Translations under genes and position numbers: made by a program
DNA from: Candidatus Bathyarchaeia archaeon
Lineage (GTDB): Archaea; Thermoproteota; Bathyarchaeia; Bathyarchaeales; Bathycorpusculaceae
DNA length: 64,000 bases
Assembly: GCA_049970895.1 (NCBI GenBank)
Contig: JBMFMB010000005.1
Coordinates: 1-64,000 of the forward strand
Direction of reading: 5' to 3'
Shown here: piece after piece, positions 41,140 through 50,019 of the stretch
How the letters are laid out: every line of letters begins with the position of its first letter
Position numbering within the stretch: position 1 is the first letter of the stretch
Notes under the pieces: model-generated
What the model was told of the DNA's origin: nothing
What the model saw: only the letters and a program-made list of their open reading frames with translations
Databases searched by the model: none

Positions 41140-42423
41140 TCATTTTTTGTGTAAGTTTTGGGCTGCTATAAATGTTAAGCCTTTTTCTGTTAAGGCTTTG
41201 GCTGTTCTGTTTACTGCATCATGCTTGTCCAGGTAGTTGGCTAAAAGTTTTGGCATGAGCCCCTTTTCCATTATTTCCTTCTTTGGCATGAAGTAGTCAA
41301 GTATGTCTGATGGGTGCTCGCGGGTTTTCTCAACTTCTGGTGGTGCACCCTCGTGTTTGGCGCTTATGTTTTTCACATGGTCTGCTACTTCCAAAAGTTC
41401 GTTTAGGCGGTCGTATGGTTGCCTCACAATGCTTTTGTAGGCTTCTGTTATGTGGTGCTCTATACGTACAACATCTTCGAAGTCAAAAGTCTTGCGGATG
41501 TAGGCTGAAAGCTCAATGGTGCTGTTGTCCACAGAATTGGAAAGGTTAAATCCAATTAGGGGTGTTGTGCCGTCATCTCTGCTGAAAAGTTTCGCCATCG
41601 TAAGAATCCACAGAATTGAGTAGGGGTTGTCTATTCCGAGGAAAACCGAGATTTTAAATTCCATGTCTATTCCAAGCTTATGCAGTAAAAACCCCAGCAG
41701 AACGGTTCCAATGTTTGTGTTTAAAACTTGCCTTACGCCATATTCTGTGTAATAGTGCAAGTACTCTTCAACCCATTTTAGGGCATACTCGTTTGGAACA
41801 CCAACACCACCGAAATACCCCGTTATAGTTTCTGGACCACCAAGATGAACGTTTATTGGCTTGCCATCCGATCCCAGCATGGTGCCTTTTGTGTCCAGTG
41901 TCTGCACATAAGAAGCCCCAATAATTTGCATTGCGGCGGCAAAAGCCAAAATGTCGCCGTCTTCAACTTGCTCCTTCATTGAGCGGACGCGGATGTAGCG
42001 GGCTGGCATTAAGTCTTGCTGCCTAATAGCCTTCTTAGCCTCTTCAATAAGCCATGGGAAAAAGTTGCAAGCACTAATTTCAAGGGTTACAGCAAAGGAC
42101 TCGTCAAAACGCATGGAATCCGCCTTTTTCCCAAGGATTTTTCTGCGGTATTCTGGTATGCTTATGAAGGCCCCTTTATCCCGCTGCTTTATCAGCCACT
42201 CTAGGTCTTTCAAGAAGGGAGACTTTTTCTCTTCAAGGCGTTTCATTAAGTTTTCAAGCTTGCCATTTTCTCTGGCTTTACGGTTTATTTCCTCAACTCC
42301 ACCATTCTCGTCAATAATTTTAAGGATTCCATTAATGAGGGGGTTATCCTCCCTCAAAAGGAAAGCATTAACCTCTTTCAGGTTTTCCTCATTTATCAGC
42401 ATTTTCTCTCTTATCGCCTTCAA
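41140..42423 (-). CDS. Hypothetical soluble protein of unknown function
   Basis: 427-aa intact ORF with motif-like blocks (LEISAC, RYIRVR, TLDTKG, HLGGPETITGYFGG, EHHITE, SAKHEG). No family recognised. Confidence 0.75.
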   Translation of the reverse strand: MKAIREKMLINEENLKEVNAFLLREDNPLINGILKIIDENGGVEEINRKARENGKLENLMKRLEEKKSPFLKDLEWLIKQRDKGAFISIPEYRRKILGKKADSMRFDESFAVTLEISACNFFPWLIEEAKKAIRQQDLMPARYIRVRSMKEQVEDGDILAFAAAMQIIGASYVQTLDTKGTMLGSDGKPINVHLGGPETITGYFGGVGVPNEYALKWVEEYLHYYTEYGVRQVLNTNIGTVLLGFLLHKLGIDMEFKISVFLGIDNPYSILWILTMAKLFSRDDGTTPLIGFNLSNSVDNSTIELSAYIRKTFDFEDVVRIEHHITEAYKSIVRQPYDRLNELLEVADHVKNISAKHEGAPPEVEKTREHPSDILDYFMPKKEIMEKGLMPKLLANYLDKHDAVNRTAKALTEKGLTFIAAQNLHKK

Positions 42424-42507
42424 ACGGTTTCCTCCAGCAAATTCGCATAACTACATATTCAAAGCTTAAATTGTTTAACATTTATGGTAATTCAAGGAAG
42501 GAAAAAC

Positions 42508-43986
42508 ATGTTCAAACCAGAAGGAATTTTACCAGCACTTGTCACGCCCTTTACAGACGACGGAAAAGCCGTCGACATTGAAAAGCTGCGTTTCCTGGTA
42601 AATCGCTGCATAGAATTGGGCGTCCACGGCGTTGTCCCATGCGGCACAACAGGCGAGTTTGTAAACATGACCGTTGAGGAGCGAAAACAGGTCATTAAGG
42701 CCGTTGTGGACGAGGTTAATGGGAGAGTCCCAGTGATTGCCGGAACAGGAGCGAGTGGAACAGATCAAGCCCTGGAAATGACAAAGTATGCGAAGGATGT
42801 TGGCGCGGATGCTGCCCTCGTTGTTACGCCATTTTATTTGAAGCCTGCAGACCGTGGGATATATGAGCACTTTGACACTATAGCAAGCAAAGCCGACATG
42901 CCAATAATACTCTACAATATTCCACAGTGCACGGGTGTGCAGCTCACATGGCAGATGGTTGAGGACTTGGCTCAAATCCCAAACATTGTAGGCCTAAAAG
43001 ATAGCAGCGGACAACTCAGCTACATACTTGCAGTGCTGGAAAAGGTTAGGGACAAGATTAACGTTTTGTGTGGCCATGATGAAGTGGTTGTGGCGGCATT
43101 GGCTGCGGGTTGTTCAGGCGCCATCCTTGCAAGCGCCAACGTCATACCAGACATTTGGGTTCAAATATACAATCATGTGAAAAATGGCGAGTTGCAAAAA
43201 GCCAGAGAACTCCAATATAAGGTTCAGAAAATAGCCCGGATAATAGCCGGAAGTGGACCGGTTGGAGCTAAAGCCGCCCTAAACATGATGAGGATAAAAG
43301 TTGGCCCAGTAAGGCAGCCCCTAAGCGTTGGCGGCGAACTAACCTACGAGGCTAGGGAGGAACTCCGCTTAGACCTTGAAAAAATTGGAAAAATAGAGCC
43401 AAAACCAGTAACCTTCGAAATTGGAGAGAAACCCCTTGAGCAACGTTTCATGGCTATCGACATAACTCCAGAAATCATAAAGGACTTTAATCTTAGAGTG
43501 GGCGAAGCATTAGCCGGAACAGGAGCAGAAGTAGCCCACATAGACCTAATCATAGGCAGAAAAGATGGTCCTGTAGGTGTAGCCTTTGCCAAGGCTAAGG
43601 CGGCTCCAACTCCTGGACATGAGCCTTTATTGGCCATATTAGAACCAAACTTAACCGTTAAGCCCATAACGCTAATTGTTCCAACGGTTACGATAACAAG
43701 TATGCGGCAGGCAAGCCTCGTCTATGGGCCGGCTCAAACGGCTGTTGCTAAGGCTGTTTTGGACAGCGTTGCTGATGGCACAATACCGAAGGAAGCTGTG
43801 GAGGATCTAATCATTATTGCAAATGTTTTTGTGCATCCATCCGCCGTTGATAGGCAACGGGTTTACATAAACAATTATAAGGCTATGCGCCACGCCATCC
43901 GCAAAGCCGTAGAGGGAAGACCAACAATAGAAGAGCTTATGGAGAACAAAGAACGCGCGAAGCATCCCTTCAAATACACGCCCTAG
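42508..43986 (+). CDS. DapA/NAL-family aldolase fused to formaldehyde-activating enzyme (Fae)
   Basis: N-terminal ALVTPF, GTTGE, VTPFY, LYNIP, LKDSSG. C-terminal VGEAL...EVAHIDLIIG...PLLA..PNL.VKP...GPAQ.AVA.AV.D.V...HPF. Confidence 0.9.
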   Translation: MFKPEGILPALVTPFTDDGKAVDIEKLRFLVNRCIELGVHGVVPCGTTGEFVNMTVEERKQVIKAVVDEVNGRVPVIAGTGASGTDQALEMTKYAKDVGADAALVVTPFYLKPADRGIYEHFDTIASKADMPIILYNIPQCTGVQLTWQMVEDLAQIPNIVGLKDSSGQLSYILAVLEKVRDKINVLCGHDEVVVAALAAGCSGAILASANVIPDIWVQIYNHVKNGELQKARELQYKVQKIARIIAGSGPVGAKAALNMMRIKVGPVRQPLSVGGELTYEAREELRLDLEKIGKIEPKPVTFEIGEKPLEQRFMAIDITPEIIKDFNLRVGEALAGTGAEVAHIDLIIGRKDGPVGVAFAKAKAAPTPGHEPLLAILEPNLTVKPITLIVPTVTITSMRQASLVYGPAQTAVAKAVLDSVADGTIPKEAVEDLIIIANVFVHPSAVDRQRVYINNYKAMRHAIRKAVEGRPTIEELMENKERAKHPFKYTP

Positions 43987-43988
43987 GC

Positions 43989-44813
43989 GTGAAAACCTTG
44001 TCAAGCCAAAAAATAATGGATGGAGACCACGTACTGCTATATTTAAGGCAGAGGAAAACCTACCTCGTCAAAGTTGAAGCTGGAAAAACCTTCCACACCC
44101 ATAAAGGCTTCATAAAATTCGACGACCTCATCGGAAAAGAGTATGGTTCGGCTGTTTTAAGCAGTTTAGGCGTCCAATTTATAGCCCTAAAACCGTTGCT
44201 CCGCGACTACGTAATGAAGGCTGTTAGGCGAACCCAAATCACTTACCCAAAAGACATAGCCCTAACCATAATGTTCAGCGGAATAGGCCCCGGAAGCCGC
44301 GTTGTAGAAGCAGGAACAGGGACAGGTGCACTAACAACAGCCATAGCCCACTATGTTAAGCCAAACGGCCGCGTCTATAGCTATGAAGTTCGAAGAGAAT
44401 TTCTTGAAACGGCTGAGAAAAACATTAAACGTGCGGGTTTGATGGATTACGTGACGCTTAAAAACAAAGATATTACGGCTGGAATAGACGAAACTGACAT
44501 AGACGCCGTCATATTAGATATGGCAACACCATGGCTTGTTGCACCACATGCATATAAGGCATTAAAGCCCTGTGGAACCATAGTCTCCTTCAGCCCAACA
44601 ATAGACCAAGTTGTAAAAACTGTTGAAGCCCTAAAAGAAAATGGCTTTATTGACGTAGAAACCGTTGAATGCTTGTTAAGGGGGATGCAGATAGAAAGGG
44701 GTAAAACAAGACCCCAAACTTTAATGACGGCTCATACAGGCTACATAACCTTCGCAAGAAAAGCCTTAGCACCGCCAACTGAGATGGGAGAAAAGAAGCC
44801 CGATGACATCTGA
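43989..44813 (+). CDS. trmI: tRNA (adenine-57/58-N1)-methyltransferase
   Basis: FHTHKG, TQITYPKD, EAGTGTG, YEVR, LDMATPW, RP...HTGY. Confidence 0.93.
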   Translation: MKTLSSQKIMDGDHVLLYLRQRKTYLVKVEAGKTFHTHKGFIKFDDLIGKEYGSAVLSSLGVQFIALKPLLRDYVMKAVRRTQITYPKDIALTIMFSGIGPGSRVVEAGTGTGALTTAIAHYVKPNGRVYSYEVRREFLETAEKNIKRAGLMDYVTLKNKDITAGIDETDIDAVILDMATPWLVAPHAYKALKPCGTIVSFSPTIDQVVKTVEALKENGFIDVETVECLLRGMQIERGKTRPQTLMTAHTGYITFARKALAPPTEMGEKKPDDI

Positions 44814-47135: not shown

Positions 47136-47489
47136 TTGAACGTTGAAATTGCCCCAACAAAAAAGGTAACAGTATTGGGTTTAGACAAGCGCAGCGTGGG
47201 CGACATTGCATGGTGCGCCACCACCTACGGTGCGAATAGGCTTTACTGGATAGATGGCTATCTGCTATGCCTAGAAGTTTACGAGAAGTCCTTCGAGCAC
47301 GAGTTGAAAAATCGCGAGTTCCCAATAAGCCAAATCTGCTACGCGGAATTCCCAAAATATGAGAGAATTTACGAAGTGGACAAGAGCCTCCAAATCCCTG
47401 TGGTGAACGTCTCAGACATGAAAATTTTCAAGAATATACTGAAAGCCATAAAAGAAAATGTGAAAACCGGAAGTGAAGAACAAGGCTAG
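47136..47489 (+). CDS. Hypothetical protein
   Basis: 117-aa ORF with LYWIDGY; in tandem after the xpf-like gene. Confidence 0.65.
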   Translation: MNVEIAPTKKVTVLGLDKRSVGDIAWCATTYGANRLYWIDGYLLCLEVYEKSFEHELKNREFPISQICYAEFPKYERIYEVDKSLQIPVVNVSDMKIFKNILKAIKENVKTGSEEQG

Positions 47490-48112
47490 TATGGCTTAAC
47501 GCAAGTTTTAGACTTTTCCAAGCTTTTAACATAATTATAGCCAAGCTCAAAAGCCTTAACATTCATTTCCACGTATTTTGCGGGAACAAGCTCCTTCAAA
47601 GCTTCTATTAGGCTTTCCTTTTTTATTGGCAGCTTCCCAGCGGTTAAAGCTCCAAGAAGAACGGCGTTCTGCATTACTGTGCTTCCAGCCTCTTTAGCAA
47701 GTCTTGACGCGTCGATGGTTATGATGTTTTTGGAAAAGAGCTTCAACCTTTCGAGTATTTCCTCGATTCTTGGATAACTTTCACCCTTCAATGTGAGTCC
47801 TGGTGGTGGGATTCTTTCATCTCCCATAATTATGAGGGTTTTTTCAGAGGCATACTTCACATTTCTCAAAGTTTCTAGAGGCTCAAATCCTAAGAGGATG
47901 TCCGCCTGTCCCTCTAAAATCATGGGGGAGAAAACGTTTTCACCAATTCTAACGGTGCATAAAACTGCGCCGCCCCGCTGAGCCATTCCATGGATTTCGC
48001 CCACACGGACGTTTAAGCCGTCTTTCACTGCAGCGGTTCCGAGAACTTCAGCTGCTAGAAGTATGCCTTGACCGCCAACGCCAGCCAAAACAATGTTAAA
48101 ATCCTTTTTCAT
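47486..48112 (-). CDS. iorB: Indolepyruvate:ferredoxin oxidoreductase beta subunit
   Basis: AGVGGQG, EIHGMAQRGG, FEPLE, NAVLLG, NVKAFELG. Confidence 0.93.
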   Translation of the reverse strand: MKKDFNIVLAGVGGQGILLAAEVLGTAAVKDGLNVRVGEIHGMAQRGGAVLCTVRIGENVFSPMILEGQADILLGFEPLETLRNVKYASEKTLIIMGDERIPPPGLTLKGESYPRIEEILERLKLFSKNIITIDASRLAKEAGSTVMQNAVLLGALTAGKLPIKKESLIEALKELVPAKYVEMNVKAFELGYNYVKSLEKSKTCVKPY

Positions 48113-48126
48113 ACCGCCCGCCACCT

Positions 48127-50019
48127 TTATGCTCGTTTTAATGGTTCTATGGCTTTGTATGGGCAAACATAAGCGCATAAGCCACAGCCAACACAGAGGT
48201 TCTCGTTTATAGCTACAGTCTTATCCTCCTTGAGGATTATTGCTGGACAGCCCAACAATTTGATGCACGCCATGCAGTTTGTACACTTCTCATTCACTTG
48301 GAATGGCACAATTTCTAAGCCTTTCCGCCTCTTCTCCCTCACAAGCAATAAGGCACATGGCGCCCTAAAAACAATAAGTGAAGTCTCTGGAAACCTTAAC
48401 GCCTCTTTTAAAGCTTTTTCGGCTTCTCCAACATTGAAGGGGTCAACAACCCTAACGAATTTTACTCCGCAACCCTCTGCAACCTTTTCAATAGCTATGG
48501 GCTCTGTTGGCGTCTGCATACCAGTCATGCCTGTTCCCGGATGCGGCTGATGACCAGTCATCGCCGTTGTGAGGTTGTCTAAAACAGCGACAACAATCTT
48601 GTGCTTATTGTAAACCGCGTTTAAAAGTCTCGGCACTCCAGCGTGGAAGAAGGTTGAGTCTCCAATTATTGCAATTGTGTCTGTCCCGGTTGCTTTGGTT
48701 ATGCCTTGAGCTGTTCCTATTCCAGCACCCATGCATACGAGGATGTCGCCAACTTTTAGGGGTGGGGCTATTCCTAGAGCGTAGCAGCCAATGTCAGTTG
48801 GGTAAATCGCCCTTTCGCCAGCAACCTTCTTAATGACGTAGAAAGAAGCCCTATGGGGGCATCCTGCACACAAAATTGGCGGTCTAGGCGGAATCCCTTC
48901 GGAGGCTTCACCGTATCGCCTATTCAAACCTTCAAAGTCTATGGACATTTCTCTGCCAGTTATTGCGGCTAACCCCTTCAAGACTAGGCTTGTGGAAAGT
49001 TCGCCAGACCTTGGAAAATAACGTTTGCCATAAACCTCTGTTAATGGGGCATAATCCTTTGCAATTGCCCTAACATGAAGCTCAAGGTAGGGTTCAAGCT
49101 CCTCAACAACAATGGCTTTGCTGTGCTCTTTCAAAAATTTTCCAATCAATTTTTCGGGCAACGGGTGGGTCATTCCAAGCTTTAAGACGTCAATGTTTAA
49201 GCCCAAAAGTTCGGCGGCTTCAACAGCGTAGTTATACGCCGCACTTGAAGAGATTATGCCATACTCTTTGTCTTCGCCTTTGGGCTTGATCGTGTTGTAT
49301 GGAGAGTTTTCCGTTATTTCCTTAGTCTTTTCCATTTGCTCTAAGAGGACATCGTGTCTAGGTCTTGCGTTGGCTGGAACCATAACAAAACGCTTAACAT
49401 CTCGAATAAATTCGCCCTTCAAGCGGGGCTTTGAGAGCTTTCCAAAAGTGACTGGTGCTCTGGTGTGGCTCACCCTTGTGGTTGTCCGAAGTATAACCGG
49501 GAGCTCAAGCTTCTCTGAAATTTCAACAGCATAAGCCACCATTTCCTTTGCCTCCTGCGGGTTTGAGGGTTCAAGGCATGGCAAGTTTGAAAGCAAAGCA
49601 TAAAGTCGGCTGTCCTGCTCGTTCTGCGAACTGTAACACTCCGGGTCGTCAGCAGCAACAACAACAAGTCCGCCTCTGACACCGGTATAAGCCAAAGTCA
49701 TCAACGCGTCTGCAGCCACATTCAAGCCTACATGCTTCATGGCTGAAAGAGCCCTAACCCCACAAGCTGCAGCCCCCCCAGCCACCTCAACGGCAACGAT
49801 CTCGTTGACGGAATATTCCATGTAAACGCCAGCTTCTTGGGCTATGTCGGAAATTGTGTCGCCAATTTCGGAGGCTGGTGTGCCCGGATAGGTGGTAACA
49901 ACCCCTATGCCAGATTCTAATATTCCGCGGGCGATAGCCTCGTTACCAAGCAAGAGCACACGCTTTCCAGGCTCATCCTTCAACAATATGTAGGGGTCTG
50001 GCATTAACGCCTTCTCCAA
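48127..50019 (-). CDS. iorA: Indolepyruvate:ferredoxin oxidoreductase alpha subunit
   Basis: LLGNEAIARG, YPGTP, MKHVGLNVA, SSQNEQD, CAGCPH, DIGCY, GDSTFFH, C-terminal ferredoxin motifs. Confidence 0.95.
   Translation of the reverse strand: MEKALMPDPYILLKDEPGKRVLLLGNEAIARGILESGIGVVTTYPGTPASEIGDTISDIAQEAGVYMEYSVNEIVAVEVAGGAAACGVRALSAMKHVGLNVAADALMTLAYTGVRGGLVVVAADDPECYSSQNEQDSRLYALLSNLPCLEPSNPQEAKEMVAYAVEISEKLELPVILRTTTRVSHTRAPVTFGKLSKPRLKGEFIRDVKRFVMVPANARPRHDVLLEQMEKTKEITENSPYNTIKPKGEDKEYGIISSSAAYNYAVEAAELLGLNIDVLKLGMTHPLPEKLIGKFLKEHSKAIVVEELEPYLELHVRAIAKDYAPLTEVYGKRYFPRSGELSTSLVLKGLAAITGREMSIDFEGLNRRYGEASEGIPPRPPILCAGCPHRASFYVIKKVAGERAIYPTDIGCYALGIAPPLKVGDILVCMGAGIGTAQGITKATGTDTIAIIGDSTFFHAGVPRLLNAVYNKHKIVVAVLDNLTTAMTGHQPHPGTGMTGMQTPTEPIAIEKVAEGCGVKFVRVVDPFNVGEAEKALKEALRFPETSLIVFRAPCALLLVREKRRKGLEIVPFQVNEKCTNCMACIKLLGCPAIILKEDKTVAINENLCVGCGLCAYVCPYKAIEPLKRA

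Follow-up and report, generated by a model that had tools for sequence, protein, structure and literature searches.

Introduction

The closest described relative of the system considered here is Fae-Hps (5,6,7,8-tetrahydromethanopterin hydro-lyase / 3-hexulose-6-phosphate synthase; NF009833), in which the formaldehyde-activating enzyme Fae is joined to an aldolase that handles formaldehyde in archaea using tetrahydromethanopterin (H4MPT). Reportedly described by Goenrich and co-workers in 2005, it provides a precedent for the fusion of an aldolase with Fae; where domains are fused, the steps they catalyze usually have a metabolite in common. Here we analyze another pairing of this kind, encoded by a gene at positions 42508..43986 on the forward strand (+) of a 64,000-nucleotide stretch of DNA (hereafter the window; contig JBMFMB010000005.1, positions 1 to 64,000, assembly GCA_049970895.1) from Candidatus Bathyarchaeia archaeon. 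The gene fuses an aldolase of the dihydrodipicolinate synthase (DHDPS) family to Fae and stands beside a conserved gene, named X in this study. What is new in this coupling of an aldolase with Fae is the class of aldolase and the partner family, whereas each domain is ordinary in itself.

The most abundant archaea of sediments include Bathyarchaeia and Asgard archaea, whose carbon metabolism has been inferred almost wholly from annotation. In a survey of Bathyarchaeia, fae is widespread and is treated as a plain detoxification marker (PMC10321748). The reversible conversion of pyruvate and formaldehyde to 4-hydroxy-2-oxobutanoate (HOB), which is relevant to the function proposed below, appears in a review only as a promiscuous activity; there, Escherichia coli RhmA, a promiscuous enzyme acting on a non-native metabolite, catalyzes it in a synthetic homoserine cycle (PMC8879981). 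No description of the present fusion was found in the open-access papers and bioRxiv preprints that were searched.

The Aldolase-Fae Fusion Gene and Its Distribution

The fusion gene is a single uninterrupted open reading frame (ORF) of 492 amino acids, the translation of which contains two Pfam domains. An alternative upstream ATG is present at 42484 (+), and the ATG at 42508 is favored as the start because most homologues are 492 amino acids long. A hidden Markov model (HMM) scan with PF00701, PF08714, and TIGR03126 bears out the initial annotation, which had described one ORF with a DapA-family domain and a complete Fae domain. The N-terminal domain (42517..43380, +), assigned to the class I Schiff-base aldolases of the DHDPS family by PF00701, by alignment with a solved structure, and by residue counts, matches PF00701 (Pfam DHDPS) over residues 4-291, covering profile positions 2-287 of 289 (E 8.2e-83). 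It is followed by an interdomain linker of approximately 39 residues between the Pfam envelopes (43381..43497, +), which is variable in alignments and poorly conserved. The Fae domain (43498..43971, +) matches PF08714 (Pfam Fae) over residues 331-488 (E 1.9e-63, 213.7 bits against a cut-off of 27) and scores 222.4 bits against a cut-off of 118 with the NCBIfam equivalog-domain model one_C_fae (TIGR03126). This C-terminal half aligns end to end with Fae of Methylobacterium extorquens (1y5y; E 2.5e-37), including His344 of the AHIDL motif, presumably catalytic, and the C-terminal HPF tail. The motifs quoted in the initial annotation all lie where it had placed them, with GTTGE at residue 46, LYNIPQCTG at 135, LKDSSG at 163, EVAHIDL at 341, and KHPF, which holds the HPF tail, at 485.

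The fusion is a real gene and not an assembly artifact. Both Pfam domains are present in all of the best 120 protein clusters among the matches listed, some of them on contigs longer than 1 Mb, and a protein library clustered at 50% identity contains approximately 16 fused representatives, down to 36-40% identity. A scan of GTDB species genomes identified 80 loci with 85 fused ORFs, distributed among Bathyarchaeia, Asgard archaea (Promethearchaeota, Thor-, and Hodarchaeota), two Thermoplasmata, and two Anaerolineae. Co-occurrence was assessed in an evenly drawn sample of 151 Bathyarchaeia genomes, each at least 80% complete, which includes the genome that contains the window (97% complete, 79 contigs; hereafter the host genome). 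The fusion was identified in 46 of these 151 genomes, with a patchy distribution among families, and with its 80 loci it is no one-off architecture. The sampled genomes are related and not independent, and all co-occurrence counts are accordingly given without statistics.

Divergence From Lysine-Pathway Dihydrodipicolinate Synthase

One reading of the gene is that it encodes a functional dihydrodipicolinate synthase, that is, a true DapA merely fused to Fae. Such a reading agrees with the database name of the homologues, which, where they are named, are called 4-hydroxy-tetrahydrodipicolinate synthase, with the score of the fusion against the NCBIfam equivalog model dapA (TIGR00674; 259.6 bits against a cut-off of 206.15), and with its best solved relative, DapA of Methanocaldococcus jannaschii (2yxg; E 3.8e-61 to the N-terminal half). 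However, TIGR00674 is also passed by non-Arg sister sequences (P0188, P0190, and P0133), so that the model does not discriminate between the two groups, which explains the systematic misnaming as DapA.

The active-site residues argue against a true DapA. In the 2yxg alignment, Cys141 of the fusion faces the Arg of LYNVPSRTA, a position that we take to be R138 of E. coli DHDPS and to bind the carboxylate of aspartate semialdehyde. The replacement of this Arg by Cys had been noticed in the initial annotation, and the absence of Arg extends to all of the fused ORFs: the position is occupied by Cys in 70, Ala in six, Val in five, and Thr in four of the 85 fused ORFs, and by Arg in none. All 85 retain the Lys that forms the Schiff base, the catalytic Tyr, and the Thr-Thr pair (K164, Y136, and T47-T48 in the fusion), whose presumed roles are those described for E. 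coli DHDPS.

Phylogeny separates the fusion from DapA as well. A FastTree phylogeny with midpoint root was built from 164 DHDPS-domain sequences, four of 168 having been dropped as fragments without the key columns. In this tree, 43 fused domains and three short sequences form one clade of their own (support 0.995), from which the midpoint root separates every one of the 57 sequences with Arg. The successive sister groups of the fused clade carry Leu, Val, or Phe at the Arg position, as NAL and KDG-type aldolases presumably do likewise.

The genomic context points in the same direction. No dapB was identified above the cut-off in the host genome (best 39 bits against 122), and no lysA, archaeal-type asd, or hom (homoserine dehydrogenase) was found there above the respective cut-offs. 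Among the sampled Bathyarchaeia, dapB is present in 42 of 151 genomes, of which a single one is among the 46 fusion carriers and 41 are among the 105 others. Five of seven Asgard carriers have dapB, each with a separate adjacent DHDPS gene of approximately 300 amino acids that outscores the fusion against PF00701, and in one of these genomes (G154) the dapB-adjacent gene reads LYNVPSRTG, with the Arg in place. The presence of canonical dapA-dapB alongside the fusion in Asgard genomes indicates that the fusion is a paralogue serving a different function. Taken together, the loss of Arg, the separate clade, the missing dapB, lysA, and asd, and the coexistence with dapA-dapB in Asgard genomes agree with the earlier claim that the protein is not a lysine-pathway DHDPS, and a true DapA fused to Fae is a highly improbable reading. 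These comparisons support the view that the fusion aldolase descends from the DHDPS/NAL family and is no longer a dihydrodipicolinate synthase.

The only other DHDPS-family sequence of the host genome is a decayed relic on another contig (C12:44521-45170; locus L004), which is broken by frameshifts into three pieces, contains two TAG stops in frame, and lacks profile positions 41-100. Since it reads YSVP.FTG at the Arg position, it is considered a remnant of another non-DapA aldolase paralogue.

The Fae Domain and Its Tetrahydromethanopterin Context

The Fae domain of the fusion looks catalytically intact. The His is kept in 83 of the 85 fused ORFs and the C-terminal HP tail in 76, and three of the nine ORFs that miss the tail are truncated at contig ends. 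The host genome also encodes a Mch match on contig C22 (424 bits) and a classical Fae-Hps on contig C9, which indicates that one-carbon (C1) metabolism based on H4MPT is present and that the fusion is a second Fae in this organism. Among the sampled Bathyarchaeia, 42 of 46 fusion carriers contain Mch, as do 80 of the 105 non-carriers, and so do all seven Asgard carriers.

The Fae-Hps of the host genome lies in an open frame of 495 amino acids (locus L001:1195-2682), in which the first ~100 residues before Fae resemble a helix-turn-helix and represent either a true extension or an over-called TTG start.

A Conserved Partner Gene

The only strongly conserved neighbor of the fusion is gene X (41140..42423, -), which was overlooked in the initial annotation and is newly recognized here from the conservation of the neighborhood. 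X encodes 427 amino acids and is divergent from the fusion, the two genes being 84 bp apart; this intergenic region (42424..42507, from the gene coordinates) is presumed to hold a putative shared promoter. X stands beside the fusion in 63 of the 80 loci, within 300 bp in 55 of them, and three gene orders are found. X is divergent in Bathyarchaeia; in Asgard archaea it lies directly upstream on the same strand (with a 19-bp gap in locus L062), and in locus L074 it is downstream of the fusion with a 4-bp overlap. The identity of X between Bathyarchaeia and a Loki genome is 64%. Among the sampled Bathyarchaeia, the long form of X occurs in 21 of 151 genomes, 20 of which also carry the fusion.

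A short form of X (312-347 amino acids) is located beside the fusion in five further loci (L032, L040, L047, L082, and L084); its relationship to the long form is weak, with an E value of 2e-5 in BLASTP and, in hhalign, a probability of 26.6% and an E value of 6.9e-4. A distant homologue in an Anaerolineae locus is likewise weakly related (BLASTP E 1e-9).

X has no Pfam or NCBIfam family match, a profile search against PDB sequences returned nothing significant, and a search of the ESM Atlas returned no usable match. At least 8000 homologues exist, and the best 120 listed are all named 'hypothetical protein', none with a precomputed Pfam domain. An AlphaFold (AF2) model (predicted local distance difference test, pLDDT, 85.9) shows an N-terminal helical domain of ~100 residues followed by a TIM barrel. 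Foldseek matched this model weakly to aldolase-type TIM barrels (best E 2.7e-4, a transaldolase), and a VIA structure search produced a flat list of TIM barrels at Z 11-13 with Kce/BKACE on top. Seven residues of X are invariant (S117, D177, K257, S259, N296, K356, and E358), which suggests that X is an enzyme. A complex prediction for the fusion and X scored 0.00 against a mark of 0.32, was run without controls, and says nothing either way on binding.

Proposed Function and Alternatives

We tentatively propose, with a confidence somewhat short of even, that the fusion is bifunctional, with a class I aldolase of the pyruvate type that liberates or consumes formaldehyde in connection with H4MPT, in the manner of Fae-Hps. 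The N-terminal half, as a DHDPS/NAL-family 2-oxoacid aldolase with a Lys Schiff base, would act on a 4-hydroxy-2-oxo acid with formaldehyde as the aldehyde moiety, in the simplest case interconverting HOB with pyruvate and formaldehyde. The fused Fae would then condense formaldehyde with H4MPT to methylene-H4MPT, or supply formaldehyde in reverse; the favored direction is the formaldehyde-releasing one, which would be catabolic and detoxifying. X would most likely make or consume the 2-oxoacid substrate of the aldolase, acting before or after it. Formaldehyde is suggested as the aldehyde partner because the organism uses H4MPT and its Schiff-base 2-oxoacid aldolase is joined to an intact Fae. 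The formaldehyde partner, the particular oxo acid, the direction of the reaction, and any channeling are inferred from the fusion itself and from the analogy with Fae-Hps, and the role of X is inferred as well.

Several observations weigh against this proposal. The nearest stand-alone relatives are uncharacterized aldolases that could take larger aldehydes, no gene for making HOB was identified, and the long X is present in only 20 of the 46 fusion-bearing Bathyarchaeia genomes. No Mch match was obtained in the two Thermoplasmata (one of them a complete chromosome) and one Anaerolineae carrier examined, and no match to RFAP synthase (TIGR00144) was found in these three carriers, a marker that also missed a Mch-bearing Bathyarchaeia chromosome and is therefore not relied on for H4MPT biosynthesis. 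In addition to the full fusions (type A), to which the fusion of the host genome belongs, there is a subgroup with a degenerate Fae domain (type B; approximately 475-485 amino acids), which keeps the aldolase residues and has an altered Fae motif, without the HPF tail and often without the His. In loci L078, L079, L082, L083, and L084, a type B gene and a full type A gene form a tandem pair with type B first, and this pairing with a full copy argues that Fae catalysis is not always needed. Thermoplasmata and Anaerolineae genomes with such tandem pairs have no Mch match, and the Fae-like domain of these Mch-less lineages may depend on a different cofactor or act as a scaffold. The link between Fae and H4MPT drawn in the initial annotation consequently stands in part: it agrees with the intact motifs and with the Mch and Fae-Hps of the host genome, and it is not universal, given the three carriers without a Mch match and the tail-less subgroup.

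The same observations bear on an alternative in which the substrate of the aldolase is a larger 2-keto-3-deoxy or 4-hydroxy-2-oxo acid (of the KDG, NAL, or HOGA type), formaldehyde is not a product, and Fae serves mainly as an oligomerization scaffold or pterin-binding module. The type B paralogues, in which the aldolase residues persist although the tail and in many cases the His are gone, speak for this alternative, and so do the carriers without a Mch match. Sister clades with Leu, Val, or Phe at the Arg position, together with sub-threshold NCBIfam matches to NAL, KDG aldolase, and HpaI-like models, also point to larger substrates. However, type A proteins keep their Fae motifs across Bathyarchaeia, Asgard archaea, Thermoplasmata, and Anaerolineae, at the frequencies given above, and the Fae domain passes its NCBIfam equivalog-domain cut-off; a scaffold alone would need neither, which counts against that role. 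We regard this alternative, the main rival of the proposal, as possible though rather unlikely.

A further alternative runs the formaldehyde-linked aldolase in the anabolic direction. Methylene-H4MPT from the methyl branch of the Wood-Ljungdahl pathway would yield formaldehyde through Fae, which would be added to pyruvate to form HOB, and amination of HOB to homoserine would replace the aspartate semialdehyde route. Homoserine dehydrogenase (Hom) has a distribution that favors such a replacement: among the 151 Bathyarchaeia genomes it is present in 11 of 46 fusion carriers and 85 of 105 others. At the family level, the fusion is absent from f2 and f11, where every genome has Hom, whereas all genomes of f4 and f15 carry the fusion and lack Hom; within family f5, Hom is missing from genus g19, which carries the fusion, and present in g20, which does not. 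Moreover, the host genome lacks asd, hom, and thrB, yet keeps a ThrC-like gene. On the other hand, in the fusion genomes of the same order that lack Hom, the only ThrC retained is a low-scoring paralogue of ~480 amino acids, which is also found in genomes with canonical ThrC, and family f4, in which four of four genomes have the fusion, has no ThrC match. No homoserine kinase was found in the host genome, Asgard carriers retain dapA-dapB, and the anticorrelation of Hom and the fusion may only reflect amino-acid auxotrophy combined with shared ancestry. The rarity of dapB and Hom in carriers may be due to auxotrophy, shared ancestry, or functional replacement. The anabolic alternative is in our judgment quite unlikely, and the survey of ThrC demoted replacement of the homoserine route to a minor rival. 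It is comparably improbable that the fusion and X form a natural route from pyruvate and a C1 unit to a C4 compound, leading from methylene-H4MPT through formaldehyde and HOB to homoserine, in Bathyarchaeia without aspartate-semialdehyde and homoserine dehydrogenases.

The ThrC-like gene of the host genome is located on contig C2 (69765-70730; locus L089:1318-2757) and encodes 479 amino acids; it scores 221 bits with TIGR00260 and 401 bits with NF004170, the latter just under the cut-off. Further Bathyarchaeia share this low-scoring paralogue, some of them with the canonical ThrC and some without it.

A replacement of PanB (ketopantoate hydroxymethyltransferase), in which formaldehyde derived from methylene-H4MPT would be added to 2-oxoisovalerate, was also considered. 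The chemistry fits, as a 2-oxoacid enamine would react with a C1 unit, and the host genome has phosphopantothenate synthetase without PanB; two methanogen control genomes also lack PanB. However, PanB is present in 23 of the 46 fusion-bearing Bathyarchaeia genomes and 29 of the 105 others, with no complementarity. This candidate was rejected on account of that co-occurrence, and we hold it to be extremely unlikely.

Neighboring Genes

A tRNA methyltransferase gene of the TrmI/GCD14 type (43989-44813, +) starts 2 bp past the stop of the fusion and recurs in 35 of the 80 loci, all of them from Bathyarchaeia; it is probably co-transcribed with the fusion and functionally unrelated to it. Located 3.5 kb downstream of the fusion, two genes (47486-50019, -) encode an indolepyruvate-type 2-oxoacid:ferredoxin oxidoreductase, with a POR gamma-like subunit of 230 amino acids and a thiamine pyrophosphate/4Fe-4S subunit of 630 amino acids, and this pair is not conserved beside the fusion elsewhere. 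Among the loci compared, neither TrmI, nor an M24 peptidase, nor ERCC4, nor the oxidoreductase subunits showed a conserved functional link with the fusion.

Significance and Comparison With Known Systems

What matters about the fusion is its combination of domains, its occurrence across Bathyarchaeia and Asgard archaea, and its misannotation; the gene is probably the sign of a connection, not described before, that leads from small organic acids to C1 metabolism. The fusion is annotated as DapA, and surveys may also score it simply as fae; both labels mislead reconstructions, the former of lysine prototrophy and the latter of formaldehyde detoxification. If the aldolase makes or uses formaldehyde, the fusion would be a second natural coupling of an aldolase with Fae besides Fae-Hps, and it would directly bridge pyruvate-level metabolism and the H4MPT-bound C1 pool. 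X, which belongs to a large family of hypothetical proteins, gains a testable context. Should the homoserine route be true, it would be the natural counterpart of the man-made homoserine cycle. The proposed activity, if true, would also provide a natural enzyme for a reaction that synthetic methylotrophy currently borrows from promiscuous enzymes (PMC8879981).

Among known systems, RhmA catalyzes the reaction proposed for the fusion, but without coupling to a C1 carrier. It is a class II metal aldolase with a fold unrelated to the class I family. The stand-alone Fae of methylotrophs (M. extorquens) is matched over its full length; in the fusion, Fae is a domain of a 492-residue protein, and the fusion family also includes tail-less paralogues. 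Fae by itself is pentameric and DHDPS dimeric or tetrameric, and a D5 decamer may be guessed for the fusion. For X, the top of the flat structural list is formed by Kce (3-keto-5-aminohexanoate cleavage enzyme)/BKACE (DUF849), with 3c6c at Z 13.0 (root-mean-square deviation 3.9 over 233 residues) and 2y7d at Z 12.8, although many unrelated TIM barrels match X at Z 11-13 and X has the extra helical domain. M. jannaschii DapA shares the fold, the family, and the Lys, Tyr, and Thr-Thr residues with the N-terminal half, whereas the fusion has Cys in place of Arg, carries an extra Fae domain, belongs to a separate clade, occurs in a host genome that has no diaminopimelate pathway, and coexists with true dapA-dapB in Asgard genomes.

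Fae-Hps remains the closest parallel, as it likewise couples Fae to a formaldehyde-handling aldolase, and the logic presumed to be common to both is that formaldehyde never leaves the enzyme. The order of the domains is opposite, Fae being C-terminal in the aldolase-Fae fusion, and the Fae-Hps model NF009833 is matched in its Fae part alone, at profile positions 2-161 of 392, with a score of 183.6 bits that stays below the cut-off of 274. The partner of Fae differs accordingly: it is an Hps with the OMP-decarboxylase fold in Fae-Hps, whereas it is a Schiff-base 2-oxoacid aldolase of the DHDPS family in the fusion.

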